From contig CAZIQO010000002.1 in NCBI GenBank assembly GCA_964541465.1, positions 710 through 64,709 on the forward strand: a DNA stretch of 64,000 nt, written 5' to 3'. Of this stretch, positions 2,942-27,432 are shown one piece after another. Below the pieces are notes generated by a model. That model was given only the letters and a program-made list of their open reading frames with translations, was not told the origin of the DNA and did not search any database. How positions within the stretch are numbered: the stretch's first letter is position 1; each line of letters starts with the position of its first letter. The translations under genes and the position numbers were made by a program. The stretch is from an uncultured Oscillospiraceae bacterium. Lineage in GTDB: Bacteria > Bacillota > Clostridia > Christensenellales > CAG-138.

Positions 2942-4375
2942 TTACAGCACGCCGCGGATGATGTAGGACTTCTCCTGGCTGAACTCCTCGAGCGTGGAAG
3001 CCACGCCCTCGCGCCCGATGCCGGACTGCTTGAACCCGCCGAACGGCTGGTCCAGATGCCGGTAGTTACCGGTGGCGTTGGTCACCACGCCGCCGGCCTT
3101 GAGCTTCGTTGCGATTTTGATGCCGAGCGCGTAGTCGCTCGTGACCACGCCCGCCTGCAGGCCGTATTTCGTCTGATTGGCGAGTTCGATGGCCTCCTCG
3201 ACGGTGTCGAAGGGAATGATCGGGATCACCGGCCCGAAGATCTCGAGGTCCTTTGCGACGGGCATATCCTTCGTGACGTTCGTGAACACCGTCGGTTCGA
3301 GGAAGGTCCCGTTTTTGAGCGTGCCGCCGTAGACGCATTTGGCGCCCTGCGCCTTCAGGTCCGCGATCTGCGCCATGACCTTTTCGGCCGCCGCGGCGGA
3401 GTGCATGCAGCCGTATTCCGTGGACGGATCCGTCGGGTCGCCGCGCTTCACCCGGTCGAGCCGCGCGCAGAGGCGGCGGACCAGCTCGTCGTGGATGCTC
3501 CGGTGCACCAGGAAACGCTTGCTCGCGCAGCAGGTCTGGCCGACGTTGAACACGCGGCCCCAGTAGATCTGTTCCACCGCGTAGTCGATGTCCGCATCCT
3601 TGCAGATGATCAGCGCGTCGTTGCCGCCGAGTTCGAGGAACACCTTGTGCAGATACGGCGCGCTGTCGCTGAGCACGCCAATGCCGGCGGCCGTGGAACC
3701 CGTGATGGACACCGCCTGAATGCCGTCGGTTTTGATGATCTCGTCGGTCACGAACGCGCGGTCCGCGTAGACGACCTGCGCCGCGTCCGCCGGAACCCCC
3801 GCCTCGACAAGGAGCTTGGTCATCTCGATAAGCGTGAGCGGATCGGTCGCCGGAACCTTGATGATCACGGCGTTTCCCATGATCAGCGCGGGGATAACCT
3901 TATGCGCGTACAACTCCAGCGGGAAGTTGAACGGCACGATGCAGAGAAACACGCCGAGCGGCTCGCGGCGCGTGAAGATCAGGTCCGCCTCCAGCCCGGG
4001 CTGGTTGTCATTGATCACCTTGCCGTAGAGATGGTTCGCATGCTGGATAAACCCCTTCGAGATGTTCGCCGTACCGACCGCTTCACCCATCGCCTCGCCG
4101 TAGATCTTGCCCATTTCGCGGCTCAGCGTCAGGCCGAGACGGTCCTTGTTTGCGCCAAGCAGCTCCACGTAGCGCATGAGGATCTCCGTGCGTTTGTACA
4201 GCGGCATCGCGCTCCACGCTTCGAATCCCTTTTTCGCGTTTGCCAGGATCTGCGCGCCGTCGCCTTTTAAGGCCTTGTAAACCGTTCCCACCGTTTCGCC
4301 GTTGGCGGGATTTTTGATGGCGATTTCGCCGGCGCCGGCCGGCCGTGTTTCAAAGCCGTTCAGTTTCATGCCCAT
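2942..4375 (-). CDS. NAD(P)+-dependent aldehyde dehydrogenase
   Basis: 477 aa with ALDH-family motifs ELGGND and FNVGQTCCASKRF (catalytic Cys region). ACGGAGGAC RBS 7 nt upstream of the ATG. Confidence 0.9.
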   Translation of the reverse strand: MGMKLNGFETRPAGAGEIAIKNPANGETVGTVYKALKGDGAQILANAKKGFEAWSAMPLYKRTEILMRYVELLGANKDRLGLTLSREMGKIYGEAMGEAVGTANISKGFIQHANHLYGKVINDNQPGLEADLIFTRREPLGVFLCIVPFNFPLELYAHKVIPALIMGNAVIIKVPATDPLTLIEMTKLLVEAGVPADAAQVVYADRAFVTDEIIKTDGIQAVSITGSTAAGIGVLSDSAPYLHKVFLELGGNDALIICKDADIDYAVEQIYWGRVFNVGQTCCASKRFLVHRSIHDELVRRLCARLDRVKRGDPTDPSTEYGCMHSAAAAEKVMAQIADLKAQGAKCVYGGTLKNGTFLEPTVFTNVTKDMPVAKDLEIFGPVIPIIPFDTVEEAIELANQTKYGLQAGVVTSDYALGIKIATKLKAGGVVTNATGNYRHLDQPFGGFKQSGIGREGVASTLEEFSQEKSYIIRGVL

Positions 4376-4432: not shown

Positions 4433-5758
4433 TTATGGTACGGCGTTCGCCGCGATCTGCACCGCATCCCACACCGCCGCAAACGGCGGCGCATACCCGA
4501 GGTCCAGCCTGCCGAGCTCGCCTGCGGTCATGCCGCGGTCGACCGCGCAGGCGAACACGTCGATACGCCAGGCGCTCTCGCCCTTTCCCATGATCTGCGC
4601 GCCAAGGACCCGCTTCGTGCCGCGTTCAAAGCAGACGCGGATCGTGACGGGCACGGGCGCCGGATAATACGGCGCGTGGGAAAGCGTCTGCACCGTAACG
4701 TCGTCCGCGTCGAACCCCGCTTCGAGCGCCTCGCGCTTTGCTATGCCGGTCTTGGCCAGTTCGAGCGTCACGCAGCGGAGCATCGCGGTGCCGAGCGCGC
4801 CGCCGAATCCGCCGTCCCGGCCAAGCATACCGTCCGCGGCGAAGCGGCCCTGCTTATTGGCGTTCGTGCCGAGCGGGATATACGCCGGCCGGTTCAGAAC
4901 GCGGTGCCATACCGCCGCGCAGTCGCCCGCGGCATAAACATCCGGAACCGACGTCTCCATGCGTTCGTTCGTAACGATCGCGCCGTTTTTGAGGCGTTCG
5001 ATCTGCGCGTCGCCGAGAAAACGCGTGTTCGGCCGGACACCGACGACGACCACCACGACATCCACGGGGTATTCCCCCCTGTCGGTGCGGACCGTCCGTT
5101 TTCCGTCCTGCCCGCCGATGCCGGCGAGCGCCTCGCCGACGCAAACGAGCGCGCCGTTCTGCTCCAGTTCCTCCTTCGCCGCCTGCCCGAAGTCCGCGTC
5201 GAACCCGTTGAGCAGCCGGGGCAGGGCTTCGAAGAGCATCGTCTTCTTGCCGCGAAGAAGGCAGGCCTCCGCCAGCTCTACGCCGATATACCCGCCGCCC
5301 ACGATCGCAACGCGCATACAGTCCGGCCGATCAAGCGCGTTTCGCAGCGATTCCCCGTCCTGCAGGGTTCTGAGCGTATACACAAACGGCAGGTCCATGC
5401 CGGGCAGCGGCGGGCGCACCGGGGACGCCCCGACGCCGATAAGCAGCTTGTCGTAACATTCATACGTCGTTTGGCCGTCGTGCCGCACTGCGACGGCCTT
5501 TTGTGAGAAGTCGACCGCCGTCGCCTCGTGGAACAGCCGCAGGTCGATTCCCTGCGCGCGGAACTCCTCGGCTTTCCGGATCCGCATGCGGTCCAGCTCG
5601 TCGTTGACGCCTCCAACGTAGTACGGCAGTCCGCAGGCACCGTAGGAAACCTCGCCGCTCTGTTCGAATACGACGACCTCGTTGCCGCTCGATTTCCGCA
5701 CCAGCCGCGAAGCGGCGCTCATGCCGGCCGCATCGCCTCCGAGAATCAGAATCCTCAT
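4433..5758 (-). CDS. FAD-dependent pyridine nucleotide-disulfide oxidoreductase (CoA-disulfide reductase / NADH oxidase family)
   Basis: N-terminal ILILGGDAAG dinucleotide fold. Single redox Cys motif SYGACGLPYYVGG. Second GGGYIGVE NAD(P) fold. Late GDCA motif. Confidence 0.85.
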   Translation of the reverse strand: MRILILGGDAAGMSAASRLVRKSSGNEVVVFEQSGEVSYGACGLPYYVGGVNDELDRMRIRKAEEFRAQGIDLRLFHEATAVDFSQKAVAVRHDGQTTYECYDKLLIGVGASPVRPPLPGMDLPFVYTLRTLQDGESLRNALDRPDCMRVAIVGGGYIGVELAEACLLRGKKTMLFEALPRLLNGFDADFGQAAKEELEQNGALVCVGEALAGIGGQDGKRTVRTDRGEYPVDVVVVVVGVRPNTRFLGDAQIERLKNGAIVTNERMETSVPDVYAAGDCAAVWHRVLNRPAYIPLGTNANKQGRFAADGMLGRDGGFGGALGTAMLRCVTLELAKTGIAKREALEAGFDADDVTVQTLSHAPYYPAPVPVTIRVCFERGTKRVLGAQIMGKGESAWRIDVFACAVDRGMTAGELGRLDLGYAPPFAAVWDAVQIAANAVP

Positions 5759-5773: not shown

Positions 5774-6724
5774 TCAGACGATTACGTTCCGAAGGCCGTT
5801 CCCGCGGATATAGTCGGCCAGCAGCTCGCCCGCCTGGGCGCAGATCCGGTACCCCGAGGCGGCGGAGTAATATGCCGTATGGGGCGTGATCAGCACGTTG
5901 CCGAACGCCGCGAACCGCTTCGCCGCTTCCAGGTCGCCTTCGATCACGTCCAGCGCGGCCCCGCCGATCCTCCCCGATGAAACCGCGTCGTAGAGCGCGT
6001 CCGTGTCGATCAGCGGTCCGCGCGCCGTATTGATGATGTAGGCCTGCGGCTTCATCTTGGAAAAGGCCTCCGCGTTGAGGATATGCTTCGTTTCCGCCGT
6101 AAGCGGCACGTGCAGCAGCAGGAAATCCGAGCGGCGCAGCACATCGTCGAGCGAAACGAGCGTCAGCCCGAGCCGCCCGGCAACATCCTCCGGCAGATAC
6201 GGATCGTACCCGATCAATTCCACGCCGAACGGAATCAGCCGCGGCATGACCTTCTGGGCGATGCCGCCGCAGCCGATGAACCCGACCGTCGCGCCGCACA
6301 TGCCGCGGATCGCGCCGTATTGCTTCGGCGGCTTCCAGCTTCCCGCGCGTACGTCCAGCACCTGCGGAAAGAGCCGGCGCTCCAGCGAAAGCAGCAGGGC
6401 CACCGTATGGTCCGCAACCTCTTCCTGACAGTAACGCGGCAGGTTGCACACATGCACGCCGCGTTCCTTCGCCGCCGCAAGATCGATATTGTCCACGCCG
6501 ATTCCCGCGCGCACGATCACCTGCAGTTTCGGCAGACTGCGGATCACCCGTGCGGAGACCACCGTAAGCGCAACCAGCAGCGCATCCGCGTTTTGCCCGG
6601 CCGCGAGAATGCTCTCCTCGTCCGGCTCGCGGATCAGCTCATAGCTGCCGCCCGCCTCCTCGATCAGCCGCTTTTCGATGCTGCCGTCGGAATATCCCGT
6701 GGATACGTGCAGTACATGAAACAT
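5774..6724 (-). CDS. D-isomer-specific 2-hydroxyacid dehydrogenase family protein
   Basis: GFIGCGGIAQKV NAD fold and the family pattern ...NTARG..ID..AL. Start trimmed to ATG 6724 (MFHVLHV...), which has GGAAGGAG upstream. The track ORF extends to 6805. Confidence 0.85.
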   Translation of the reverse strand: MFHVLHVSTGYSDGSIEKRLIEEAGGSYELIREPDEESILAAGQNADALLVALTVVSARVIRSLPKLQVIVRAGIGVDNIDLAAAKERGVHVCNLPRYCQEEVADHTVALLLSLERRLFPQVLDVRAGSWKPPKQYGAIRGMCGATVGFIGCGGIAQKVMPRLIPFGVELIGYDPYLPEDVAGRLGLTLVSLDDVLRRSDFLLLHVPLTAETKHILNAEAFSKMKPQAYIINTARGPLIDTDALYDAVSSGRIGGAALDVIEGDLEAAKRFAAFGNVLITPHTAYYSAASGYRICAQAGELLADYIRGNGLRNVIV

Positions 6725-6770
6725 TGTTCGCTCCTTCCGTCCGTTCCGTCGCCCGAACGGATCAAACCTG

Positions 6771-6802
6771 ATAAAATGAAACCGGCGAAACGGTTTCGCC
6801 GG
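6771..6802 (-). terminator. rho-independent terminator after the GntR gene
   Basis: On the minus strand: ccggcgaaa-ccg-tttcgccgg (9-bp stem) followed by tttcatttta. Confidence 0.65.
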
Positions 6803-6811
6803 CAAAAGTCG

Positions 6812-7474
6812 TCAACTGAACCGGCGGTAATCGTCCGCCACGCTCAGCAGATGCTCGGCCATGCGCGCGCGCGCGCCTTCCGCGTCGTGCTGGGCAATCG
6901 CGTCCACCAGCCGGATATGCTGCTTGTGCGCGCGCTCCTGTACGCCCGGCAGGGTGGAGGTCTTCTGTCGGCTGATTTCGCCGATTTTGCCGATGCTCGT
7001 AATGAACCGGATCAGAATGGGATTCCCCGTCGCGTAGGCGATTTTCTCATGCAGTTGCTGGTCGACGCGCGCGTCGAACCCCTGACCAATCAGCTCTTTG
7101 AGCTCCGCGATCTGCGCGTCGCTCGCGCGTTCGGCCGCAAGCGCCGCGATCGACGGCTCCAGAATGTTCCGCGCCTCAAAGAGGCTGAACACCGTGGACT
7201 TATCCAGCAGAAACACAAACTGCAGGTGCTCCACAAGTTTGCACGGGTCCAGCGAGGAAATGAACGCCCCCTTTCCCTGATAGATATCGATGACGTTCAT
7301 GATCTCCAGCGTCCTGAGCGCCTCCCGGATGGAAACGCGGCTGACACCGTAGATTTCGAGCAGTTTCTTTTCGCTCGGCAGCTTATCGCCGGGCTTTAAG
7401 CGGCCTTCGACAATGTCGTTGAGGATCTGTTCCACGATCTCCTCGGAGAGGACCTGTCTTTTCGCTCCCAGCAT
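6812..7474 (-). CDS. GntR/FadR-family transcriptional regulator
   Basis: N-terminal winged-HTH pattern LPSEKKLLEIYGVSRVSIREALRTLE, followed by a helical FCD-like C-terminal domain. 220 aa. Confidence 0.9.
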   Translation of the reverse strand: MLGAKRQVLSEEIVEQILNDIVEGRLKPGDKLPSEKKLLEIYGVSRVSIREALRTLEIMNVIDIYQGKGAFISSLDPCKLVEHLQFVFLLDKSTVFSLFEARNILEPSIAALAAERASDAQIAELKELIGQGFDARVDQQLHEKIAYATGNPILIRFITSIGKIGEISRQKTSTLPGVQERAHKQHIRLVDAIAQHDAEGARARMAEHLLSVADDYRRFS

Positions 7475-7519: not shown

Positions 7520-7945
7520 TCATTGCCGGACCGGCCGGAAAAACGGCAGCGAGACCCCGTCTTCCCGATCGTAAAACTCCACCTGCACCGGCTGCCCGCA
7601 TTGCAGATCGGTTGGATCACAGCCGGCGATATTTGTCAGCAAACGTACGCCTTCGTCAAGATCCACACTCGCCACAACGTATGGGAGCCGCCCTTCCAGC
7701 GACGGATGGAACGCCCTTCGGAACACGACGTAGCTGTAGATCCGCCCCCTTCCGGCGCTCTCGATCCAATCATAGTCGAACGCACTGCATTCCGGGCAGA
7801 CAAAGGACGCGGGCCAGCGGACCTTTCCGCAGCGCGCGCACCTCTGAAACAGCAGCCTGTGCCCGCGGCAGCCCTCCCAGAACGGACGCTCGTCGTGCGT
7901 CATCTTCGGCGCAAACAGCACCTTCGCTTCGCCTTCCGCCATCAT
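7520..7945 (-). CDS. DUF35 Zn-ribbon/OB-fold protein (partner of thiolase-like enzymes)
   Basis: CxxC...CxxC zinc ribbon (CARCGKVRWPASFVCPEC) followed by an OB-fold-like tail. Start MMAEGE at 7945 overlaps the upstream thiolase-like stop (ATGA). The track ORF up to 8194 is a shadow extension. Confidence 0.8.
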   Translation of the reverse strand: MMAEGEAKVLFAPKMTHDERPFWEGCRGHRLLFQRCARCGKVRWPASFVCPECSAFDYDWIESAGRGRIYSYVVFRRAFHPSLEGRLPYVVASVDLDEGVRLLTNIAGCDPTDLQCGQPVQVEFYDREDGVSLPFFRPVRQ

Positions 7946-9138
7946 CGGCCGCCCTCCTTCAGGATCAGCGCGAGGTGGCTTTGATACACCTCGCCGTTGT
8001 CGCTGCAAAGGATGAATTCCGGCCGTTTCGTTCCCGGCAGCACGCCGAGCTGCCGCTCCCCGCAGCGGCCCGTGAGCTGCATCACCGCCTCCGACACCGG
8101 CGTCAGACCCATGCAGTACGATTCGGACAGCAGTCCGCCCGAGGTGTTGACCGGCAGGCTTCCGCCTGGTCCGATGCGCTCGGGGACGAACCATTCTGCC
8201 GAGTCCTTCGGCTCAAAGAAGCCGTAGTCCCGCAGCGTCGCTTCCACCGTATAGGTAAAGCAGTCGTAGATTTCACATGCGCCGATCTCTGCGCGCGTAA
8301 TCCCCGCCATCTCGAAGGCGTCCCTGCCAGCGGGAAACGCGCCGCTTGTTCGGTCCGTGTGAGTCTGCCAGAGCGGCAGCATAGCGGTGTTGCTTACGCC
8401 GAATCCGCTCACCGTGGCGTAGGGCCGGCCGAGTTCCTTCGCGCGCTCCGCCGTCGTGAGCACGATCGCGCGGCCGCCGTCGGTGATCATCGTCGCGTCC
8501 AGGATACGGAACGGCTCCACCAGATACTCGGCGGAGAGGTAGTCCTCCTCGCTCAGCGGTTTTCCGTACATGGCCGCGCGCGGATTGAGGCATGCCCAGC
8601 GCCGCTGGCTGGCCGCGATCCGCTTCCAGACATGCGGTCCCGTGCCGTCCTCGTACATCGCGCGCCGCGCGCACAGCGCATACTTGGCCATCACGCTGAA
8701 ATCGCCGAACGCCGCGCCGTCGTCCGCGGGCGCGCCGCAGTGCAGTTCGCCGACGAACGAGCGCCGCTGCGACCGCCCGTTATCACCGTAACAGACCAGC
8801 ACATACCGGCACACGCCCGTTTCCAGCAGGCCCAGCGCGTGCGTGAGCCAGCTTCGGTAGCAGTACGCCTCCTGGCTCAGCACCGCCGGGCGGATGCCGA
8901 GATGCTGCGCCACAAGAAAGCCCGTAACGTCCAGGTCCTCGCCGAGCGGCTCCAGATGCCGATACAGCAGCAACCCGTCGATATCTTCCTTGCGCAGACC
9001 CGCGTCGGCGATCGCGTTGACGCATGCCTCCAGATGGAAGCTCAGCGCCGTACGCCCGGGCACCTTCCCCTGCGGCGTATACCCAACGCCCACGACGGCG
9101 AGGCGGTCTTTCAGGCGTTCCCTGCCTCCGGCGGACAT
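7942..9138 (-). CDS. thiolase-like protein (SCP-x / Ltp-type, non-canonical thiolase family)
   Basis: 398 aa with a thiolase-fold N-terminus (LAVVGVGYTPQGK...) and a C-terminal GGLLSESYCMGLT-type motif. Translationally coupled to the DUF35 gene. Confidence 0.8.
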   Translation of the reverse strand: MSAGGRERLKDRLAVVGVGYTPQGKVPGRTALSFHLEACVNAIADAGLRKEDIDGLLLYRHLEPLGEDLDVTGFLVAQHLGIRPAVLSQEAYCYRSWLTHALGLLETGVCRYVLVCYGDNGRSQRRSFVGELHCGAPADDGAAFGDFSVMAKYALCARRAMYEDGTGPHVWKRIAASQRRWACLNPRAAMYGKPLSEEDYLSAEYLVEPFRILDATMITDGGRAIVLTTAERAKELGRPYATVSGFGVSNTAMLPLWQTHTDRTSGAFPAGRDAFEMAGITRAEIGACEIYDCFTYTVEATLRDYGFFEPKDSAEWFVPERIGPGGSLPVNTSGGLLSESYCMGLTPVSEAVMQLTGRCGERQLGVLPGTKRPEFILCSDNGEVYQSHLALILKEGGR

Positions 9139-9142
9139 AGGC

Positions 9143-10360
9143 TTACTGATATTCCTTCACGATGCCGACGAACTCCTCCGTAGTGAGCCCGCGCTTCACC
9201 TCCAGGCTGCGCTCCTTGACGCGGGTCAGAATGGCGGGCACGTCGTCCTCGTTTCGGATCGTAAGATTGAGCTTTTCCAGCCAGTAGCGGATGGAGGAGG
9301 TCCCGCTGCCCTTGCCGAGAACGATCGAAACGGGCGGCTGCCCCATCACGGACGGGAGGATGCCGTAGAGCGAGAGCGGGTGCTCCTTCTCCACGTTCGG
9401 CCACCAGGTCGCCGGCATGCCCGCCTCGATCTGGTAGATCTTGTCGCCCAGCACCGGCTGATTGCCGGGTATCTGCACGCCGGCGATCCGGCCCGTTTCG
9501 ATGCCCAGATCATAGAGCCGGTCGAGCTTGATCCCGCTGTCGTAGCCGTACGCCAGCTTGAGCGCGATCGCCACCTGCTCCGTCGCGCCCTGGCCGGCGC
9601 GGGGCCCGAGGCCGAGCAGCGTCGTATGCAGCACGCTCGCGCCCGATTCAAACGCCGCGAGCGCCGTGGCGGTGCCAAGTCCCAGATCGTTATGGAAATG
9701 CGCCTCGACGGGAACGTCGAGCGCGCGCACCGCCTCGCGCACCATATACTTTGCGCCCGGCACGGAAAGCGTGCCCTGCGTGTCCACGATGCTGCAGGAA
9801 TCCACCCAGCTGTGCTGTTTGATATAGCGGACCTTCTCGACGAACGCCTCGGCCGACAGGCGGGAGGAGTCCATCAGGAACAGATCGACGTAGAGCCCGA
9901 GCCGGTGCGCCAGCGCGCAGGCCTCGCACGCGGCCGCGACCGGTTTGGACAGCGGCCAGCGGTAGCCGTACTCCACGAGTTCGTCGTTGCTGGGAATCTC
10001 GATCACAACGCCGAAAACGCCGAGCTGCGCGGCCAGTTCCACGTCGTCCGTTCTTGCGCGGGAAAAGACGAATATCTTGCTCGGCAGCTTCATCCGAACG
10101 ATCTGCCCGATCGCCTCCCGGTCGGATTCCGACACCGCCGGCATGCCCGCCTCGATACGGTGCACACCCACATCGGCAAGCATGCTTGCGATGCGTATCT
10201 TATCGTCTCTTGTAAAGACCACGCCGGGCTGCTGTTCCCCGTCGCGCAGCGTTACGTCGTGCAGTTCCACCTTCTTTGGGAAGTGAAAGTCCTTCACCGC
10301 CCCCGGCGCATAGTCGGAGGGGCTTACAAAATAGTCGTCCGTTCTCCAGATCTCGCTCAT
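9143..10360 (-). CDS. HMGL-like / DRE-TIM metallolyase (pyruvate carboxyltransferase domain; IPMS/homocitrate-synthase-like)
   Basis: Motifs HDVTLRDGEQ and HFHNDLGLGTA (metal ligands). 405 aa. Confidence 0.85.
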   Translation of the reverse strand: MSEIWRTDDYFVSPSDYAPGAVKDFHFPKKVELHDVTLRDGEQQPGVVFTRDDKIRIASMLADVGVHRIEAGMPAVSESDREAIGQIVRMKLPSKIFVFSRARTDDVELAAQLGVFGVVIEIPSNDELVEYGYRWPLSKPVAAACEACALAHRLGLYVDLFLMDSSRLSAEAFVEKVRYIKQHSWVDSCSIVDTQGTLSVPGAKYMVREAVRALDVPVEAHFHNDLGLGTATALAAFESGASVLHTTLLGLGPRAGQGATEQVAIALKLAYGYDSGIKLDRLYDLGIETGRIAGVQIPGNQPVLGDKIYQIEAGMPATWWPNVEKEHPLSLYGILPSVMGQPPVSIVLGKGSGTSSIRYWLEKLNLTIRNEDDVPAILTRVKERSLEVKRGLTTEEFVGIVKEYQ

Positions 10361-10391
10361 TTCCTGTCGTCCTTTCTGTACCGACGGCTCG

Positions 10392-10418
10392 GGCGGAGGT
10401 TCCGTTTGAACCTCCGCC
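10392..10418 (-). other. intercistronic GC hairpin without U-tract
   Basis: ggcggaggtt-ccgtttg-aacctccgcc (10-bp stem) between the VOC and HMGL-like genes. Confidence 0.5.
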
Positions 10419-10462
10419 GCCGCCGGCCGTCAATCCACCCGATTCGGAAGCCTTCCGCCGTT

Positions 10463-10876
10463 TCAGGCGGCGAAGAACTCCCAGATATTTTTGTCGCAAT
10501 CCTGCACATACATCGCATAGGAACCGAAGCGATAAGCCTTCGGCTTTGCAAGGAACACGACGCCGCGTTTTTCAAATTCTTCGCAGACCTCGTCGACGTC
10601 TGCGGGCGTTTTCAGCTTCACGGACGTCAGGAAGTTATGCGCATCCTCCGAAAGGAGGTTCTCCTCGCCCATGATCGCGGCCACGGCGCTGCGCTCCCAG
10701 ATGCCGACCGTCGTCCCGCGGAAATAGTACTCGATAAAGTTCGGGTTTTCGAGCGTCGGCTGAATGCGCTTGGGCTGGAAACCGAACACGTCCTCGTAAA
10801 ACCGGCGTGCGCGCGTAAAGTTGCTCGGGAAAAAGCACACCGCGTTGATCTCGTCAATTTTTTCAAAACAGCTCAT
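10463..10876 (-). CDS. VOC (glyoxalase/bleomycin-resistance/dioxygenase) family protein, paralog 1
   Basis: 137 aa. AAGGAGGTA RBS before ATG 10876. Shares N-terminal ...IN.VCFFP.F...R.FYE.VFGF.P.R.Q and C-terminal NIWEFFA motifs with the proteins at 10909..11373 and 17893..18330. Confidence 0.8.
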   Translation of the reverse strand: MSCFEKIDEINAVCFFPSNFTRARRFYEDVFGFQPKRIQPTLENPNFIEYYFRGTTVGIWERSAVAAIMGEENLLSEDAHNFLTSVKLKTPADVDEVCEEFEKRGVVFLAKPKAYRFGSYAMYVQDCDKNIWEFFAA

Positions 10877-10908
10877 GTGATACCTCCTTGTGTGTGTTCC
10901 GTCGCCGC

Positions 10909-11373
10909 TTACTCGCCGCGCTCGACGAGCGCCGGACCGTCCCCGCCCTCGCACCAGGCGAAGAACTCCCAGATGTTCTTCTCGTTGTCGAGGAAATACG
11001 CCGCGCGGGAGCCGAACGAAAACGTCTCGGGCTTGCTGATGCAGACGACTCCCTTTGCGGTAAACTCCTCGTAGACCGCATCGATATCCTCGACCTTGTT
11101 GAGCTTGACAGCGGTCATGTAGTTATGGCCTTCCCCGCTGATAGCCTGTTCACCGAGGATTGGGCCGGCCTCCTTCCGGTCCCAGAGCGCAATGACCGTG
11201 CCGCGGAACGCATAGTCCACATAGCTGACGGCATCGCCCGTCTCCGCCGACGGCGGCTGGACGCGCCTTGGTTTGAATCCCCAGACCTCTTCGAAGAACT
11301 TCCTGGACGCTTCGAAATCCCTCGGGAAAAAGCAGATGCCGTTGATGTTGTCAAGTTTGTCCTTGTAACTCAT
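10909..11373 (-). CDS. VOC family protein, paralog 2
   Basis: 154 aa beginning MSYKDKLDNINGICFFPRDFEASRKFFEEVWGFKPRRVQ and ending ...NIWEFFAW. The track ORF up to 11493 is an extension. Confidence 0.8.
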   Translation of the reverse strand: MSYKDKLDNINGICFFPRDFEASRKFFEEVWGFKPRRVQPPSAETGDAVSYVDYAFRGTVIALWDRKEAGPILGEQAISGEGHNYMTAVKLNKVEDIDAVYEEFTAKGVVCISKPETFSFGSRAAYFLDNEKNIWEFFAWCEGGDGPALVERGE

Positions 11374-11527
11374 GCCAACCCAGTCCTTTCCTGATCTTCT
11401 TTGTGAACCGCCCGAACCGCCGCGGCTTTGCGCCGGATGGACGTTTCCGCCTTCCACGCAGGCGGGCACCGATAAAAAACCGCTGAAAAACAAGTGCGCA
11501 ATTACAATGGAGTGTTTTTAATTCATT

Positions 11528-11541
11528 ACATATGTTCATAT
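11528..11541. promoter_or_regulatory. operator-like box ACATATGTTCATAT (identical 14-mer at 27409..27422)
   Basis: Lies 12 nt downstream of the -10 of the minus-strand promoter at 11553..11582. Contains the palindrome ACATATGT. Confidence 0.55.
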
Positions 11542-11552
11542 ATTCATATAGC

Positions 11553-11582
11553 ATTATATCAATCGTATGGTGAGCCTGTCAA
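11553..11582 (-). promoter_or_regulatory. sigma-A-type promoter with extended -10 (VOC/HMGL/thiolase operon)
   Basis: On the minus strand: TTGACA (11577..11582), 18-nt spacer ending in TG, then TATAAT (11553..11558). Confidence 0.65.
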
Positions 11583-11763: not shown

Positions 11764-12732
11764 TTATTTCTGACAGACGGGAGATTTGCGGTACAGTTCG
11801 ACAAACGCGGGCACCGAGCAGAATTCCTCCCACGTCAGCCCGCACTCGCCAAGCTCGCGCGGGTTCTGAATCCCCTTCTTGTAATCGCCGTGGTAATCCG
11901 AACCGCCGGAGTAGAAAATGCGTCCGTGGACGTGCCGCTCGACGTCCGCCCAGATTTCCTCGCGGGGGCGCTTATCGCGGCAGGTCGTCTTGTCGTAGGT
12001 GTAGCGGATCTCGATTCCGTCGAGCCCGCCCGCGATCAGCCGGTCGATGAACGTCCAGCGCGGCATCGTCTCGCCGCCGGATTCGACCTGCTCGTCGATC
12101 AGGTACGGGTGCGCAAGGATGGCGATTCCGCCCGCGTCGTGCAGAAGGCGGATCACCTTCAGCGCGTCCGGCTTCTTGCGCTTGACGCCGAAATAGGGAT
12201 CTTCGCGCACAAACAGCTTCGCCGCGCTCCAGTCCGGGAAATACCCTTTTTTTGCGAGCAGATCGAAGATGCGCTTCTTCTGCAGATCCCGAAGTTCGAT
12301 CCTCTCGGGCCCGCTGGAAAGCACCTCGTCGAGCGTGATCCGATACCCGCGCTCGTCGAGCCGCCGGATCGTCTCGGCGTAGGACTCGGCCTTGCTGCCC
12401 GAAACCGCCGCCACCTCCGCGAGGATGGCTGCGTTGTTCCAGTCGCATCCGAGGCCGACGATATGGACGTCCTCCACCTGCGTTTCACAGGAGAATTCGA
12501 TCCCGCGCAGCAGGCACAGCCCGCGCGCCGCGGCGCAGGCGCAGATCTCCTCCGTCGTCCCGTCCGGCTTGAGCACCTCGGACGGCGCGATCACGTCGTG
12601 GTCGCTGATCACGACCACCTTGAGATCGCGGCGCACGGCGTTGCGCACAAATTCGTACGGCGTGTCGTTCCCGTCGGAATGGTTCGTATGCGCGTGCATC
12701 TCGCACGGATAGGTCGCCTTGCCGCTGTTCAC
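11764..12732 (-). CDS. PHP-domain metal-dependent phosphoesterase
   Basis: N-terminal CEMHAHTNHSDG and VISDHD motifs of the PHP family. GTG start overlaps the upstream aldolase stop (GTGA). Confidence 0.8.
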   Translation of the reverse strand: MNSGKATYPCEMHAHTNHSDGNDTPYEFVRNAVRRDLKVVVISDHDVIAPSEVLKPDGTTEEICACAAARGLCLLRGIEFSCETQVEDVHIVGLGCDWNNAAILAEVAAVSGSKAESYAETIRRLDERGYRITLDEVLSSGPERIELRDLQKKRIFDLLAKKGYFPDWSAAKLFVREDPYFGVKRKKPDALKVIRLLHDAGGIAILAHPYLIDEQVESGGETMPRWTFIDRLIAGGLDGIEIRYTYDKTTCRDKRPREEIWADVERHVHGRIFYSGGSDYHGDYKKGIQNPRELGECGLTWEEFCSVPAFVELYRKSPVCQK

Positions 12733-13565: not shown

Positions 13566-13636
13566 GGTTCTTCCTCCATTTGATGCAGGTTCGTCCGCGG
13601 CCGCGCGGCGCATAAAGCGGTTCTGCCCGCCCGCCG

Positions 13637-16056: not shown

Positions 16057-16071
16057 CGTCGTTTTCTCCGG

Positions 16072-16968: not shown

Positions 16969-17028
16969 CGCTTCCTCCTTTTCCAAGACGCCGGCCGTCC
17001 GGCATTTTATCGGCGCGCGGCCTGCGGT

Positions 17029-17856: not shown

Positions 17857-17892
17857 AGTGTATCCCTCTTCCCTTTTCTGTTCTTCGGCGTC

Positions 17893-18330: not shown

Positions 18331-18352
18331 CGGATTTCCTCCCTTAAAATAA

Positions 18353-19537: not shown

Positions 19538-19650
19538 GCTCCGTCCTCTCCTTTTCCTCGACTTCTTTCCCCGGCATCCGGGGAGCCGTTTGTTTCATGC
19601 CTCTTTGCCACACGCGGACCGCCTTTCAGCGATCCGCGTTGCTTGATCCC

Positions 19651-20601
19651 TCAGGAGGCCTTCGCCGTTTCTTTCTTGGTTTTTACCTTCTTGCCCGTCT
19701 GCCTTGCCCGGCGCATCGTCGAACTCAGCGCAAGAGCGATGAGTGCGAACACATACGGGAACGTCTTCACAAGATACGGCGAGATGTTCGACGCGAGCAG
19801 TTCGAAGCGCACGCCGATGGCGTCCGCAACGCCCAGCAGCAGCGCGACGAGCCACGTCGCAATCGGGTCCGCGCCGCCGAACACAAACGCCGTAAACGCC
19901 GTATAACCGCGGCCGGCCACCATGTTTTCCGTAAACGACGTGACGGAAACCGTCGACATATAGGCGCCGCCCAGGCCGCACATGAAACCCGACCACAGGA
20001 TGGCCAGGAGCTTGATGCGATTGGTCTTGATGCCCGCGGCTTCCGCGGTCTCCGGCGACTCGCCGATCGCGCGGACCGCAAGGCCGAAGTGCGTGCGGTA
20101 CAGAACGACGGCCGTGATCAGCGTGATCAGCATGCACAGGTACACCATGTAGTTCTGCCCGCTGAACAGTTCCCCGAGCACGGGGATATCCTTCAGCACG
20201 GGAATGGTGATCGATTTCGCCTTTGTGATCACGTCGGGTTTGAGCGAACCGGACGTATCGAACATCACGCGCAGGAAATAGGACGTAAGCCCCACGCCGA
20301 GCAGGTTGATCGCGATGCTCGCCACGATCGCGTTCGCGTTGAGCTTGAGCACCGCCATCGCGTAGACCAGCGAAAGCAGCATGGAAAACACGACCGCCGT
20401 CACAAGACCCATGATCATGCTCCCGCCGAACCAGCAGACGCCGGCGGTCGCGCTGAACGCGCCGATGAGCATCAGTCCTTCAAGGCCGATATTGAACACA
20501 CCGCAGCGCTGGCACATCAGGCCGCCCATCGCGGCAAGCGCAATCGGCGTCGCGGTCCGGATCGCGGTTGCAAACAGGGACAGGTCAAAATAGTGTCCCA
20601 T
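19651..20601 (-). CDS. ABC transporter permease (BMP/nucleoside-type, NupQ/YufQ-like)
   Basis: 316 aa polytopic membrane protein. Start codon shares one base with the upstream permease stop (TGATG). Confidence 0.85.
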   Translation of the reverse strand: MGHYFDLSLFATAIRTATPIALAAMGGLMCQRCGVFNIGLEGLMLIGAFSATAGVCWFGGSMIMGLVTAVVFSMLLSLVYAMAVLKLNANAIVASIAINLLGVGLTSYFLRVMFDTSGSLKPDVITKAKSITIPVLKDIPVLGELFSGQNYMVYLCMLITLITAVVLYRTHFGLAVRAIGESPETAEAAGIKTNRIKLLAILWSGFMCGLGGAYMSTVSVTSFTENMVAGRGYTAFTAFVFGGADPIATWLVALLLGVADAIGVRFELLASNISPYLVKTFPYVFALIALALSSTMRRARQTGKKVKTKKETAKAS

Positions 20602-21740
20602 CAGCGGCTCACCTCCGTTCCGGCGTCCCCTTCTTCGCCCTGCGGCAGCGTTGCAGGTTCGGAAACCGCCTTGTCTTTTTTATACCGTTTCAGCCACTGT
20701 TTGATGTAGGGCGCCGCGAACGTCGCACTGATGGCAAGCACGATGATGGCCTGCACGATGTCCGCCGTAGCGGCCGGAATGTTTGTGATGCGCTGCATGT
20801 TCGTCATGCCGTTGTCGAGGCACGCGAAGAAGAACGCCGCAAAGATACAGCCGATCGGATTGTTGTTGGCCAGAATCGCCACGACGATGCCGGAGAAGCC
20901 GATCTGCGCGGAGTTGAAGAGATTCACAAACCGATGCTGGACGCCGAGGATCATCACGACGCCCGCGATGCCGGAGATGAATCCGCTGACCATCATGACC
21001 TTGAGGATCGCCGTCTTGGAGCGGATGCCGCCGTAGCGCGCGAATTCCGGATTCTCGCCGGTTACCTTGAGTTCGTACCCGAAGCGCATCCGGTTCATGA
21101 CGAAAGCAAGCAGGAACGCGAGCACGATGCCGATATACAGTCCGGTGTTCGCCTTGCCCAGAACGCTCGAAAGAAAGTAGCTCTCGGACACGTATTCGCT
21201 CGAATTGACGATATTCGGCGTCTTGAGCGGGCCGAGGATGACCGCCTCCGTCACAAGCTCCGCGATGAAGTTGAGCAGCAGCGTCGACACGACCTCGTCC
21301 GCGTTCCAGAGCACCTTCATCAGCGCGGGAATCAGCGCGAACAGCATCCCCGCGATCCCGCCGATGAGAAACAGAAACGGGATGCCCACGACGCGCGAAA
21401 GATTCGGCAGCCACAGCGCGACCACCGTGCAGGCGAGCGCGCCCATGTAATACTGACCGTCGATGCCGAGATTGAAAAAGCCCATTTTAAACGGCATGCA
21501 GACCGCGAGCGCCGTGATCAGAAGAAAGATCATGGCCTTGATCGTGCCGCCGAAGTCCTTCACCAGCCCTCTCCCGATTCCGTCGATCACGCTTCCCCAC
21601 GGATAGCCGGAAAGGCCGAGAAACACGGTCGCGAGGACCAGCGCGAGCACGATCAGAACAACTCTTCCGATGACGGAATGGAGCATGTTCTTGAGCTGCA
21701 TCGTCAAAGCCGCTTTTTTCTTTTCCGATAGTTTCATCAT
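20601..21740 (-). CDS. ABC transporter permease (NupP/YufP-like)
   Basis: 379 aa polytopic membrane protein located between the ATPase and the second permease. Confidence 0.85.
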   Translation of the reverse strand: MMKLSEKKKAALTMQLKNMLHSVIGRVVLIVLALVLATVFLGLSGYPWGSVIDGIGRGLVKDFGGTIKAMIFLLITALAVCMPFKMGFFNLGIDGQYYMGALACTVVALWLPNLSRVVGIPFLFLIGGIAGMLFALIPALMKVLWNADEVVSTLLLNFIAELVTEAVILGPLKTPNIVNSSEYVSESYFLSSVLGKANTGLYIGIVLAFLLAFVMNRMRFGYELKVTGENPEFARYGGIRSKTAILKVMMVSGFISGIAGVVMILGVQHRFVNLFNSAQIGFSGIVVAILANNNPIGCIFAAFFFACLDNGMTNMQRITNIPAATADIVQAIIVLAISATFAAPYIKQWLKRYKKDKAVSEPATLPQGEEGDAGTEVSR

Positions 21741-21744
21741 GGCT

Positions 21745-23274
21745 CTACGCCCTCATTTCTTCCGCGGTCATGCGCTTCGCACCCGACATGTAAAGGCCGA
21801 TCTCGCCTTCGCTGACGGACCCGGCGCGGAAGGACGCAACAATCTCCCCTTCGTACATCACCAAAATCCGGTCCGAAAGTTCGAATATCTCGCTCAGTTC
21901 CGCAGAGATCAGCAGAATTCCCGTTCCCTCGTCGCGAAGCTTGAGCAGCTGCGCATGCATGAATTCGATCGCGCCGATATCCACGCCGCGCGTCGGCTGC
22001 GCCGCGATCAGAAGATCCGGATCGGAGTCGATCTCCCTCGCGTAGATCACCTTCTGGATGTTGCCGCCGGACAGCGTTTTGAGCGCGTATTTCGCGCTGG
22101 GCACCTTGATGCCGAACTTCTCGACCAGATTCTCCGCCATCGTGTCCGTCCGCTTGCGATCGAGCACATGGAACCGCGCGTACGGCGCGCGGTAGTAGCA
22201 GTTCAGAATCAGGTTCTCCTCGATGGAGCAGTGCGCCGCGACGCCGACCCGCATGCGGTCCTCCGGGATATGGGAGATGCCGAGTTCCCTGCGCTGACGG
22301 ATGCTTTTTTTATTGATCGGGACGTTTTCAAAATAGAGCTTCCCGCGCAGCGCCGGACTCTGCCCCGCCACGACCTCCTCGATCTCCGTCTGCCCGTTGC
22401 CCTCCACGCCGGCGATGCCCACGATCTCTCCCTTATGCACGGAAAAGCTCACGTTTCGCACGGCCATGAAGTTACGCGCATTCTTGGCGTACAGGTTCTC
22501 CACGCGCAGGACCTCCTCGCCCGGCGCGTACGGCGCGCGCGGCAGATTGCTCTGCGTCACGTGTCCGACCATCAGGTTGGAAAGCTCCCTTTCGTTCGTC
22601 TCCGAAGCCAGCACGCGGCCGGTCACAACGCCTTTGCGCATGACGGTGATCCGGTTTGCGATGGCCAAAACTTCTTTTAATTTGTGCGTGATAAAGATGA
22701 TTGAGCAGCCGTTGCTCTGCAGATTATGAAGAACGCCGAAAAGAACCTTCGCCTCCGGCGGCGTAAGCACCGCCGTAGGTTCGTCAAAGATCAGGATCTT
22801 CGCATCCCGGTAGAGAAGCTTGACAATTTCGATCCTCTGGCGCTCGCCGACGGAAAGCTCGTAAACCTTCACATCCAGGTCCACGTGGAGCCCGTAGCGG
22901 TCCATGATGTCCTCCACCTTTTTGCGCGCCTTTTTCAGATCGATAAGCACCTTGTCGTGCGCGGAATTGCCGAGCGCTATGTTCTGAAGCGCGGTCAGCG
23001 ACGGCGCCAGCATGAAGTGCTGATGCACCATGCCGACCTGATGCCGGATCGCTTCGAGCGCCGTGCGCATCTCGACTTTCTCTCCAAACAGACGGATGCT
23101 TCCGGCATCCGGCTGAATCAGACCGTAGAGGATATTCATCAGTGTGGTTTTCCCCGCGCCGTTTTCCCCGATTAAACCATGGAGTTCCCCCTCCTCGATC
23201 ACCAGATCCACGTGGTCCACCGCGTGTACGTCGCCGAAGCTCTTGTCTATGCCCCTCATTTCCAGCACTTGCAT
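21745..23274 (-). CDS. ABC transporter ATP-binding protein with duplicated ABC domains
   Basis: 509 aa with Walker A GENGAGKTT, signature LSVGERQR and second signature LSGGNIQK. AGGAGGA RBS. Confidence 0.9.
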   Translation of the reverse strand: MQVLEMRGIDKSFGDVHAVDHVDLVIEEGELHGLIGENGAGKTTLMNILYGLIQPDAGSIRLFGEKVEMRTALEAIRHQVGMVHQHFMLAPSLTALQNIALGNSAHDKVLIDLKKARKKVEDIMDRYGLHVDLDVKVYELSVGERQRIEIVKLLYRDAKILIFDEPTAVLTPPEAKVLFGVLHNLQSNGCSIIFITHKLKEVLAIANRITVMRKGVVTGRVLASETNERELSNLMVGHVTQSNLPRAPYAPGEEVLRVENLYAKNARNFMAVRNVSFSVHKGEIVGIAGVEGNGQTEIEEVVAGQSPALRGKLYFENVPINKKSIRQRRELGISHIPEDRMRVGVAAHCSIEENLILNCYYRAPYARFHVLDRKRTDTMAENLVEKFGIKVPSAKYALKTLSGGNIQKVIYAREIDSDPDLLIAAQPTRGVDIGAIEFMHAQLLKLRDEGTGILLISAELSEIFELSDRILVMYEGEIVASFRAGSVSEGEIGLYMSGAKRMTAEEMRA

Positions 23275-23302
23275 GGGGGTCCTCCTAAATGATAAGATGT
23301 GC

Positions 23303-23339
23303 GGGAATGCGCGGACTCGCAGAAGTTCCGCGCATTCCC
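23303..23339 (-). other. intercistronic stem-loop between the binding-protein and ATPase genes
   Basis: 13-bp stem gggaatgcgcgga / tccgcgcattccc with no clear U-tract. This position is typical of SBP-gene mRNA stabiliser/attenuator hairpins. Confidence 0.6.
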
Positions 23340-23372
23340 TTTCCTGTATTTACCTGTTTTTCCGGTGTTTCA

Positions 23373-24515
23373 TCAGCGGGCCAGGATTGCCGCCCAATCC
23401 GGCGTATCGGTGATGAACTCGACCGTCAGCGCGCCGCTTTCAATCTGAGCGAGCGCTTCGTCAACCTTCGTCCAGGCCGCGTCGACAGCGTCCGCCTTGT
23501 CCGGGACCGCCGCCTTGAAGTTCGCGGTTGCTTCGTCGCTGTAGGCCATAATGCCGTCGTCATACCCTACGACCTGGCTGCCGCCCTGCCAATTGCCGGT
23601 TGCCCACTTTTCGACCGCGTTGTAGAGGTCGACGTCGAAGTAAACGACCCAGCACGCCGGGAGGACCGCCTCATAGCCTTCGCTGAGGTTGTAGGACGTG
23701 TCGCCGATGACCAGCACGTCGCCGGCTTCCTGAGCAGCCTCGTACACACCAACGCGCGCAGCGCCGATATCGGTGCCGATCACGTCGCAGCCGACGGCGA
23801 TCATGGCTTCCGCCTTGGTCTTTGCGGAATCGACGTCTTCATAGCTGTTGTTGTAGATGAACTCTACCTGAGCGTCGGGGTTGGCCCACTTTACGCCCTG
23901 CATGAAGCCGTTGGCTTCCGCGTTGGCCGAGGGCTCCTCAGCACCGAGGATGAAACCGACATGGCCGTCCGTAGACATGCTCGCCGCGAGGATGCCCGCG
24001 ATGAACAGGCCCTTCTGGGTCTGCCAGTTGGTCGTGTAGATGTTGTCGTAGCCTTCAATGTTCTGATACAGGCCGACGAACTTCACATCCGGATAATCCT
24101 TGGCGCACTGCATCACCGCTTCGGACATGAACGAGAAGGTGGTGATGATGAGCTGGCAACCTTCCTCGCAGAGCGCGGCGAGGTCGTCGTAGTAGTTGGC
24201 TTCGTCGAGGGACTCGAGCGTCGTGTAATCCAGATTATAGTCCGCGGATACTCTCTGGAGTCCTTCGAGCATCTGGTCGATGGAGCTGCCGTCGCCGAAG
24301 CGCTGGTTCGCTACGAGCGCAATCTTCGGCTTTGCGGTCTCCTCGGTCGTCTCTTCCGCAGGCGCCTCGGTCGTCTCTTCCACAGGCGCTTCGGTCGCTT
24401 CCGTAGCGGTGGTGGTCTCTTCGGATTCGGTCGTTGTCTTGGCGCAGCCGGCAAACATCACCGAAACAAGCGCCAGCGCTAGCAACAGGGCAAGGAATTT
24501 CTTTGCTTCTTTCAT
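23373..24515 (-). CDS. BMP-family (Med/PnrA-like) ABC substrate-binding lipoprotein
   Basis: Signal peptide plus lipobox MKEAKKFLALLLALALVSVMFAGC, a Thr/Glu-rich linker, then a BMP-type domain. GAAGGAGA RBS before ATG 24515. The 616-aa track ORF is an artefactual extension. Confidence 0.85.
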   Translation of the reverse strand: MKEAKKFLALLLALALVSVMFAGCAKTTTESEETTTATEATEAPVEETTEAPAEETTEETAKPKIALVANQRFGDGSSIDQMLEGLQRVSADYNLDYTTLESLDEANYYDDLAALCEEGCQLIITTFSFMSEAVMQCAKDYPDVKFVGLYQNIEGYDNIYTTNWQTQKGLFIAGILAASMSTDGHVGFILGAEEPSANAEANGFMQGVKWANPDAQVEFIYNNSYEDVDSAKTKAEAMIAVGCDVIGTDIGAARVGVYEAAQEAGDVLVIGDTSYNLSEGYEAVLPACWVVYFDVDLYNAVEKWATGNWQGGSQVVGYDDGIMAYSDEATANFKAAVPDKADAVDAAWTKVDEALAQIESGALTVEFITDTPDWAAILAR

Positions 24516-25885: not shown

Positions 25886-25924
25886 TTTTACCGTTCCTCG
25901 CGCCCGCCCTGCCGGCGGAATTGG

Positions 25925-27425: not shown

Positions 27426-27432
27426 GTTATTT

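Follow-up and report, generated by a model that had tools for sequence, protein, structure and literature searches.

A stretch of 64,000 nucleotides from an uncultured Oscillospiraceae bacterium (contig CAZIQO010000002.1; hereafter the window, to which all coordinates refer unless another contig is named) carries on its minus strand five adjacent genes that encode two paralogous VOC proteins, a DRE-TIM barrel protein, a thiolase-like protein and a DUF35 protein. Together they make up the enzyme core of a catabolic cassette, apparently undescribed, that is conserved from Clostridia to Chloroflexota. Both enzymes to which C-C chemistry can be ascribed, the DRE-TIM and the thiolase-like protein, depart from their families at the defining residues, so that neither should be regarded as a thiolase, an aldolase of the Ltp2/Sal type or a synthase of the LeuA type. 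Tentatively, the cassette is read here as a C-C cleavage system that gives a 2-oxoacid such as pyruvate, an aldehyde and acetyl-CoA, an assignment that seems to us possible rather than probable.

The operon is preceded by a sigma-70-type promoter (11553..11582, minus strand), in which TTGACA and TATAAT are 18 nt apart and match at all 12 hexamer positions and in which the TG of an extended -10 element is also present. VOC paralogue 1 (VOC1; 10909..11373, minus strand, 154 aa; PF00903, 44.4 bits) was taken to start at the ATG at 11373, which has the ribosome site AGGAAAGGA, rather than at a TTG at 11493. It is followed on the same strand by VOC paralogue 2 (VOC2; 10463..10876, 137 aa; PF00903), by the LeuA/homocitrate-synthase-like DRE-TIM protein with its HDVTLRDGEQ and HFHNDLG motifs (9143..10360, 405 aa; PF00682, E 8.5e-51), by the thiolase-fold hybrid with C93, Y291-D-C293-F and Y341 (7942..9138, 398 aa; PF22691), and by the DUF35 protein, which consists of a Cys4 zinc ribbon and an OB fold (7520..7945, 141 aa; PF12172, 35.1 bits, and PF01796, 82.1 bits). 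Read directly from the sequence, 4 nt separate the stop codon of the DRE-TIM gene from the start of the thiolase-like gene, and the stop of the latter overlaps the DUF35 start in ATGA (7945..7942). A GntR/FCD regulator resembling NanR, LldR and GlcC (6812..7474, minus strand, 220 aa; PF00392 and PF07729) comes next, and then a terminator-like hairpin with a 10-bp GC stem and a U-rich tail (6781..6803, minus strand). Promoter, the five genes, ATGA overlap, regulator and terminator were all found where the first-pass annotation had placed them. Its description of a promoter-defined five-gene operon holds for the genes and the promoter; the conserved unit, however, extends past the hairpin, which is possibly a partial terminator, to a D-isomer-specific 2-hydroxyacid dehydrogenase (2HADH; 5774..6727, minus strand, 317 aa; PF02826 and PF00389), a flavoprotein similar to CoA-disulfide reductase (CoADR) and NADH oxidase that has kept Cys42 (4433..5758, minus strand, 441 aa), and a non-acylating aldehyde dehydrogenase (ALDH; 2942..4375, minus strand, 477 aa; PF00171, E 9e-141), which are contiguous with the GntR gene in relatives.

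The same genes, together with a Bmp-type ATP-binding cassette (ABC) importer, recur in at least five other contig lineages, all from Bacillota except for one from an Anaerolineaceae bacterium. The gene order in L081 and L082 is Bmp, ABC, two permeases, VOC, VOC, DRE-TIM, thiolase-like, DUF35, GntR, 2HADH, CoADR-like and ALDH, and the thiolase-like protein is 77% identical to that of the window; in L081 the first VOC protein is 60% identical to VOC1 and the ALDH orthologue 78% identical. L087 and L001/L002, the latter from human-gut Clostridiales metagenome-assembled genomes (MAGs), have the same cassette with one VOC gene ahead of the ATPase gene, L096 has the core alone, from Bmp through GntR, and the Anaerolineaceae MAG (L088) has the core and 2HADH, with aldehyde:ferredoxin oxidoreductase (AFOR) and OsmC replacing ALDH and the CoADR-like gene. 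Orthologues of 2HADH occupy the same position with 57-64% identity in L001, L081 and L087 and 43% in L088, and the spacing between GntR and 2HADH in relatives is 13-107 nt. The adjacency seen in the window is thus conserved, the series VOC-VOC-DRE-TIM-thiolase-like-DUF35-GntR being present in several distinct lineages, one Chloroflexota contig included. The cassette is rare: 399 genomes of the same class yielded only DRE-TIM paralogues at about 40% identity, matches at E<=1e-80 occur in only 6 of the 399 besides its own genome, and the thiolase-like gene is absent from the three of these 6 that were examined. True orthologues of the DRE-TIM protein come from metagenome assemblies. A literature search found no paper describing this gene combination, in agreement with the initial impression that a set with two VOC proteins is not a described pathway.

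What kind of reaction could the thiolase-like protein catalyze together with its DUF35 partner? The active site was compared in an alignment of solved chains with a profile built from 26 homologues. C93 aligns with the nucleophilic Cys of the EAACASG motif in the thiolases 7yvy and 6esq (Pyrococcus, Methanothermococcus), and Y291-D-C293-F aligns with the H-D-(C/A)-F motif, the first His being replaced by Tyr and the acid/base Cys, C293, being kept. Y341 stands in place of the His of the thiolase G-H-x-x-G motif. These four residues are invariant in the 26 sequences, which range from Clostridia to Desulfurella, Syntrophales and Dehalococcoidia. A true thiolase of the SCP2 or archaeal type is therefore matched in its nucleophilic Cys and in neither of the HDCF and GHxxG histidines. 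In Ltp2 the catalytic residues are Tyr294 (of YDHF) and Tyr344, and in Sal they are Tyr302 and Cys304 (of YDCY), with Gly at the nucleophile position and Gln (Gln352) at the position of the second Tyr (PMC12329534). The Tyr pair of Ltp2 is present here, and the His of YDHF, the absence of a nucleophile and a MaoC-borne DUF35 are not matched; the Tyr and Cys of Sal are present (Y291, C293), and position 93 is Cys, not Gly, and position 341 Tyr, not Gln352. Judged by alignment, the protein combines the Ltp2 Tyr pair, the Sal Tyr/Cys pair and both cysteines of true thiolases. The fold of its AlphaFold model (predicted local distance difference test, pLDDT, 83) matches, in this order, the uncharacterised 4u4e, Ltp2 (6ok1), Sal (9myr) and then thiolases, and the PhlABC and MucABC complexes are among the matches. 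The question raised in the first-pass annotation, whether the protein has a canonical active site and groups with ordinary thiolases, can thus be answered: cysteines C93 and C293 are retained, both catalytic histidines have become tyrosines, and among solved structures of characterised proteins the nearest are those of the Ltp2 and Sal aldolases. The DUF35 partner has a canonical Cys4 zinc ribbon with invariant C36, C39, C50 and C53, and in 79 of 80 genome loci its gene is the immediate neighbour of that for the thiolase-like protein.

In a quick maximum-likelihood tree of 88 sequences, with SH-aLRT support only, all cassette-linked thiolase-like proteins fall into a clade of 12 (support 96). 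Thermodesulfobacteriota, Dehalococcoidia and Campylobacterota contribute the 76 other sequences; there the context varies, and often no neighbour of the pair recurs. The most constant neighbour in the clade is the CoADR-like gene, linked in 10 of the 12 loci, and ALDH, acylating ALDH or AFOR is in the same gene string in nine. Acylating-type ALDH, thiolase-like, DUF35 and CoADR-like genes stand together in L003 and L004, and the same four lie inside an operon with a class II aldolase in L085 (411-13646) and L095 (1-12637). That operon, which also holds a sugar ABC transporter, an APH-family kinase, an IF-2B-family isomerase, a DeoR regulator, an iron-type alcohol dehydrogenase (Fe-ADH) and an MFS transporter, looks like a 5-deoxypentose or methylthioribose "dihydroxyacetone phosphate (DHAP) shunt" extended by the thiolase-like cassette. 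Outside the clade AFOR is found nearby in L051, L056 and L057, and in a Desulfobacteraceae MAG (L020, 7667-11585) genes for an ADP-forming acyl-CoA synthetase-like protein and a double-hotdog MaoC hydratase lie directly upstream of the pair, an arrangement of hydratase and aldolase that resembles Shy/Sal. Common to these contexts would be a short aldehyde or acyl unit that comes from an aldolase. Bare trios of thiolase-like, DUF35 and CoADR-like genes, with 3-nt start/stop gaps or overlaps, were also seen between housekeeping genes in L083 (10001-12949, Syntrophomonadaceae MAG) and L094 (9001-11947), the flavoprotein of the latter being split into two open reading frames, possibly by a frameshift. 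The thiolase-like proteins of HMGL-type clusters were considered as a separate orthologue group, which was rejected since they are interleaved in the tree with those linked to CoADR-like and acylating ALDH genes.

The genome to which the window belongs has been assembled to 2.7 Mb in 157 contigs and is 84% complete; its DNA is present in two activated-sludge DNA runs (0.94-0.95 of words), probably the source samples, and no RNA sequencing run carrying it is listed. In this 84% no PF00108 thiolase, convincing Hbd, crotonase or family I/III CoA-transferase was found, and acetate kinase is present. For a member of its class this assembly shows very little acyl-CoA metabolism. Because the classical thiolase, Hbd and crotonase were not found, the thiolase-like/DUF35 pair would here operate outside a beta-oxidation or butyrate pathway, and nothing obvious in the genome makes or consumes 3-hydroxyacyl-CoA. 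Such a background favours flux toward acetyl-CoA and leaves room for the cleavage of substrates other than CoA esters via Cys93.

These data bear on the rather unlikely case that the pair is a strict acyl-CoA retro-aldolase as Ltp2 and Sal are, in an aldolytic variant of beta-oxidation that would split a 3-hydroxyacyl-CoA made elsewhere into acetyl-CoA and an aldehyde. ALDH or AFOR would then oxidise the aldehyde, as in the case of Sal and Sad, and Cys93 would be a relic or regulatory. The best characterised fold matches (6ok1, 9myr), the aldehyde-oxidising genes in 9 of the 12 clade neighbourhoods and the CoA ligase and MaoC hydratase directly upstream in L020 would all be consistent with such an activity, but Cys93 is invariant across phyla where Sal has Gly. 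Moreover, the cassette contains no hydratase or CoA-activating gene, and neither crotonase nor CoA-transferases were found in the 84%-complete genome, so that strict retro-aldol cleavage of a 3-hydroxyacyl-CoA lacks a source of substrate.

It could also be imagined, as a sharper version of one branch of the favoured cleavage reading, that the thiolase-like/DUF35 pair is a CoA-dependent beta-dicarbonyl lyase acting on a free diketone or 2,4-dioxoacid that the VOC proteins, as isomerases, would supply. After attack of Cys93 on the carbonyl the C-C bond would break and CoA would take the acyl group, and the DRE-TIM protein would handle the 2-oxoacid fragment; acetyl-CoA would thus be made without ATP or NAD. 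In true thiolases the catalytic histidines hold the thioester enolate, and LsrF is a precedent for diketone thiolysis. The invariance of both thiolase cysteines and of neither histidine fits this scheme, as do the lack of a CoA-activating enzyme in the cassette and of a detectable CoA-transferase in the genome, the presence of acetate kinase, and the action of the DUF35-containing PhlABC and MucABC on substrates that are not CoA esters via a Cys nucleophile. We nevertheless hold it to be improbable: there is no step to which formation of a diketone could be assigned, the gene immediately before the pair in L003, L004, L085 and L095 encodes an acylating ALDH, with which a CoA-ester substrate fits better, and the closest characterised solved relatives are acyl-CoA aldolases.

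The second C-C enzyme, the DRE-TIM protein, has as its best PDB match the homocitrate synthase 6ktq (3.9e-44) and matches the NifV model at 3e-76, while all its NCBIfam scores are about half of the curated cut-offs (at best 256.9 bits, as compared with 462.9). The metal- and 2-oxoacid-binding residues R39, D40, E42, Q43, H221 and H223 are invariant. The HxxGxH motif, which is HKAGVH in 6ktq and HESGIH in 3rmj, corresponds to I-E-A-G-M-P in this protein and to x-x-E-S-G-I-P across its family, and the E-D-A-x-R motif reads (M/I)-D-(S/A)-x-R. In Claisen-condensing synthases the His of HxxGxH, which belongs to the accessory subdomain, takes part in enolisation of acetyl-CoA, and the motif is present in the aligned solved synthases. 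A conserved active-site helix of the Mycobacterium tuberculosis isopropylmalate synthase was reportedly the subject of a 2014 study by Casey and colleagues. Isopropylmalate synthases need their accessory domain to be catalytically active (PMC9860122). Other Clostridia have paralogues, at about 40% identity, in which both motifs are altered as well and HxxGxH is likewise lacking. They lie in a second type of cluster (L090:4626-10240, L091:4752-9408, L092:5424-9929) with GntR, 2HADH, LarA-like, UxaA-like dehydratase and AFOR genes, and no thiolase-like gene stands beside them.

Because the Claisen motif HxxGxH is lost, and because of the gene context, an aldolase or lyase is favoured over a condensing enzyme, and context and lost motifs together point to a 2-oxoacid aldolase/lyase of sugar-acid-type catabolism rather than a synthase. 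The proposal of an undescribed C-C cleavage or condensation module stands as a reading, with condensation disfavoured for a DRE-TIM protein without this motif. The name "HMGL-like lyase", which had been given to the protein at first, proved to be the Pfam family name and no more. Homocitrate and isopropylmalate synthases come nearest to the protein, which scores 39.8 bits in the 3-hydroxy-3-methylglutaryl-CoA (HMG-CoA) lyase family, for which the cut-off is 246, with PDB matches at E 1e-5 to 1e-4 only, and 71 bits in the DmpG/BphI family (cut-off 286), the match being confined to residues 148-285. An ESM Atlas search with the DRE-TIM protein returned family names only, and the prediction of a complex between it and the thiolase-like and DUF35 proteins gave a score of 0.00, which is no answer and evidence neither way.

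With both proteins in view, it is very unlikely that the genes encode an ordinary archaeal-type thiolase/DUF35 pair and a LeuA-type synthase, that is, a biosynthetic Claisen module for acetoacetyl-CoA or an alkylmalate. Both thiolase cysteines are kept, the best NCBIfam matches are "acetyl-CoA acetyltransferase" subfamilies and "homocitrate synthase", and homologues are annotated in their sources as thiolase or isopropylmalate synthase. Yet those NCBIfam scores are all well under the curated cut-offs, both histidines of the thiolase site are replaced, HxxGxH is lost, and importer, FCD repressor and ALDH make up a catabolic setting. HMG-CoA synthase (PF08540), moreover, was not found in the 84%-complete genome, just as Hbd and crotonase were not, and is absent from every cassette neighbourhood.

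How might the cassette be controlled, and what does its regulation tell about the substrate? An operator-like box, ACATATGTTCATAT, with the core palindrome ATATG-NN-CATAT and an overlapping degenerate copy, lies just 3' of the -10 element (11528..11549). As the first-pass annotation had stated, the upstream cluster carries the same box: ACATATGTTCATAT occurs exactly twice in the 64 kb, where 0.02 copies are expected by chance, at 11528 and at the promoter of a sister operon (27409-27422). In L087 (3719) and L001 (3308), too, the core directly follows a -10-like element that precedes the cassette; L081 and L096 have imperfect or degenerate versions. The FCD-type GntR protein encoded in the cassette is likely the repressor that binds this operator; its gene was found in every HMGL-type cassette examined, and its NCBIfam neighbours are the carboxylate sensors NanR, LldR and GlcC.

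The sister operon under the second operator copy (11764-27461) encodes a pyrimidine-nucleoside phosphorylase, an amidohydrolase similar to methylthioadenosine (MTA)/5'-deoxyadenosine deaminase, a Bmp ABC importer, a YqhD-like Fe-ADH and a third VOC protein. It also holds uridine-phosphorylase-like, DapA-like, phosphoglycerate dehydrogenase (PGDH)-like 2HADH and PHP-domain genes, a class II ketose-bisphosphate aldolase-like (FBA-II-like) gene and an ALDH of the alpha-ketoglutarate-semialdehyde/succinate-semialdehyde type; deoB and deoC are both missing from it. In other genomes the nucleoside phosphorylase, deaminase, DapA-like, FBA-II-like and PHP genes are missing from the cassette. The importer, which comprises a Bmp lipoprotein, a double-ABC ATPase and two permeases (19651..24470, minus strand) and is located inside the cassette in relatives, is the sole general link between the two operons. 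Since relatives carry the cassette without the upstream enzyme genes, the suggestion that the module acts on an intermediate of the upstream cluster applies to this genome at best, and what survives of it in general is the shared importer.

VOC1, VOC2 and the third VOC protein (17893-18330) belong to a subfamily with 71 cluster representatives at E<=1e-3 among 1.8 billion. The AlphaFold model of VOC2 (pLDDT 95) matches VOC proteins with a Foldseek probability of 1.0, and searches of the PDB by sequence and by fold yielded only epimerases and drug-binding or uncharacterised proteins, at 12-24% identity. In most cassettes the DRE-TIM gene has two VOC genes with it and in L001 and L087 one, and acylating-ALDH contexts have none, suggesting that the VOC proteins belong to a substrate-specific upper pathway. 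Fused VOC-VOC proteins (P0249, P0250) were considered as a sign of VOC cooperation and dropped, being 26-29% identical and from unrelated contexts. The CoADR-like protein has the motif S-Y-G-A-C-G-L-P-Y, scores 450.2 bits for NF007123, just under the cut-off of 458, and has a Thermus NADH oxidase as best PDB match.

VOC and CoADR-like proteins could together suggest detoxification of reactive aldehydes with CoA as the thiol. The VOC proteins would act like glyoxalase I on the hemithioacetal of a 2-oxoaldehyde and CoA, the CoADR-like protein would keep CoA reduced, and the thiolase-like/DUF35 pair and the dehydrogenases would process a 2-hydroxyacyl-CoA or D-2-hydroxyacid. The VOC fold, the presence of a D-2-hydroxyacid dehydrogenase, the CoADR-like gene in 10 of 12 loci with OsmC in its place in L088, and the third VOC paralogue beside the YqhD-like aldehyde reductase of the sister operon are in line with such a role. 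It is highly doubtful all the same, as the glyoxalase metal ligands are half conserved, the DRE-TIM enzyme would be left without a role, the thiolase-like/DUF35/CoADR trios of L083 and L094 have no VOC genes, and catabolism of a nutrient is the more natural role for a cassette with its own ABC importer and a substrate-type repressor.

For the preferred cleavage reading we infer the following roles, direction of flux and type of substrate. An imported compound, probably of the carboxylate type and in this genome possibly derived from a nucleoside sugar, would be prepared by the VOC pair via isomerisation or epimerisation. The DRE-TIM protein, acting as a metal-dependent 2-oxoacid aldolase/lyase and not as an acetyl-CoA-condensing synthase, would release pyruvate or a related 2-oxoacid and a short aldehyde. 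The thiolase-like/DUF35 complex would carry out a CoA-linked C-C step ending in acetyl-CoA, either a retro-aldol cleavage as in Ltp2 and Sal or the thiolysis of a beta-dicarbonyl via acyl-Cys93. The dehydrogenases would dispose of the 2-oxoacid and the aldehyde, acetyl-CoA would be passed on toward acetate kinase, and GntR would repress both the operon promoter and that of the importer/nucleoside operon via the ATATG-NN-CATAT box.

Several observations weigh against this scheme. No enzyme activity, substrate or metabolite is on record for any member of the cassette. In the DRE-TIM protein the RDG motif is followed by Gln43, a position at which DmpG-type aldolases presumably carry His, and the DmpG communication domain is missing, Pfam finding PF00682 only; the label "aldolase" therefore derives from the lost motifs and the gene context. 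The invariant Cys93 is not required by known aldolases, and neither a CoA ligase nor a CoA-transferase or hydratase is encoded in the cassette, nor was a CoA-transferase or crotonase found in the genome, whose incompleteness makes these absences provisional. Of the four usual metal-ligand positions of VOC proteins two are conserved, the third (His; Cys in one sequence) and the fourth (invariant Glu), and PDB sequence and fold searches gave no functional homologue. The CoADR-like gene, despite being the most constant neighbour, is left unexplained by the scheme. Finally, the hairpin 3' of GntR may uncouple transcription of 2HADH, CoADR-like and ALDH genes in this genome.

Two further features of the transcription unit were noted. 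The 5' leader of about 170 nt between promoter and VOC1 (11374..11545, minus strand) has no Rfam match at E<=1 and folds no better than shuffled sequences (z +0.9), with no unusual predicted structure. At the other end, the ALDH gene (minus strand) converges with a kinase gene (plus strand), and the sequence between them holds a GC hairpin of 16 bp that has a T-run on the plus strand (2872-2909). Both genes may be terminated there, the terminator pattern fitting the plus-strand form only.

Thiolase-fold/DUF35 pairs are known from few settings, namely steroid side chains, benzylsuccinate, archaeal mevalonate and acylphloroglucinols, and the family with the hybrid residues is widespread in anaerobes of several phyla. 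The cassette provides the first defined metabolic setting for this family, with an importer, a repressor and its operator, a second atypical C-C enzyme and dehydrogenases for aldehydes and 2-hydroxyacids, which makes its function directly testable. A second outcome is a subgroup of DRE-TIM proteins, derived from LeuA, in which the Claisen motifs have been lost and which turns up repeatedly in clusters of the sugar-acid type; if this protein is an aldolase, a condensing synthase would have been recruited to catabolism. New acetyl-CoA-linked aldolases and C-C lyases are useful as biocatalysts. As a speculation that we would not expect to be borne out, the pair might even be a new kind of enzyme of the thiolase superfamily, which uses CoA to cleave a free sugar-derived beta-dicarbonyl or hydroxy-carbonyl compound via acyl-Cys93, with tyrosines replacing the histidines that bind the thioester. 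Together with a LeuA-derived aldolase, a VOC isomerase pair and a dedicated CoADR-like redox partner, it would form a kinase-free route at no ATP cost from an imported compound to acetyl-CoA, and then to ATP via acetate kinase, in anaerobes whose acyl-CoA metabolism is otherwise almost absent.

How does the cassette compare with known systems? DmpG/DmpF (BphI/BphJ) is a 4-hydroxy-2-oxoacid aldolase with a partner that processes the aldehyde. In the cassette, too, a gene for a metal-dependent PF00682 TIM barrel directly adjoins one for a protein that has a Cys in its active site and would take on an aldehyde or acyl product, and the catabolic setting with pyruvate as a likely product is similar. 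The barrel, however, is LeuA/homocitrate-synthase-like by sequence (3e-76, as opposed to 7e-20 for DmpG), and the protein paired with it is of the thiolase fold, not an acylating aldehyde dehydrogenase. With LeuA, CimA and NifV (6ktq, 3rmj) the DRE-TIM protein shares R-D-G-E-Q, H-x-H and an accessory C-terminal subdomain of similar length, whereas its subfamily as a whole has other residues in place of HxxGxH and of the Glu of E-D-A-x-R, a regulatory domain is missing and the gene context is catabolic.

The thiolase-like/DUF35 pair resembles the steroid C3 side-chain retro-aldolase TcLtp2-ChsH2(DUF35) (6ok1) in the SCP2-thiolase fold, the DUF35 partner, the Tyr at the start of Y-D-x-F and the second Tyr (Y291/Y341 here, Tyr294/Tyr344 in Ltp2). 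It differs in having YDCF and a kept C93 where Ltp2 has YDHF, in its free-standing DUF35 protein of 141 aa, which in ChsH2 is the C-terminal domain of a MaoC hydratase (the cluster in the window has no MaoC gene), and in that its carriers are anaerobes and there is no steroid setting. With the bile-acid C5 side-chain aldolase CtSal-Shy(DUF35) (9myr; PMC12329534) it shares the Tyr and Cys of Y-D-C-(Y/F), the DUF35 partner and an aldehyde dehydrogenase that comes after the aldolase in the logic of the pathway, as Sad does after Sal; Gly and Gln of Sal are Cys93 and Tyr341 here, the zinc site of DUF35 is Cys4 and not Cys3His, and a hydratase partner is lacking. The archaeal thiolase/HMG-CoA synthase/DUF35 complex, finally, also has a thiolase-fold subunit with the nucleophile and an HDCF-type Cys and a free-standing Cys4 DUF35 protein, but in the cassette both catalytic histidines have been replaced by tyrosines and the third gene of the operon encodes a DRE-TIM barrel, not a KAS III-like enzyme.

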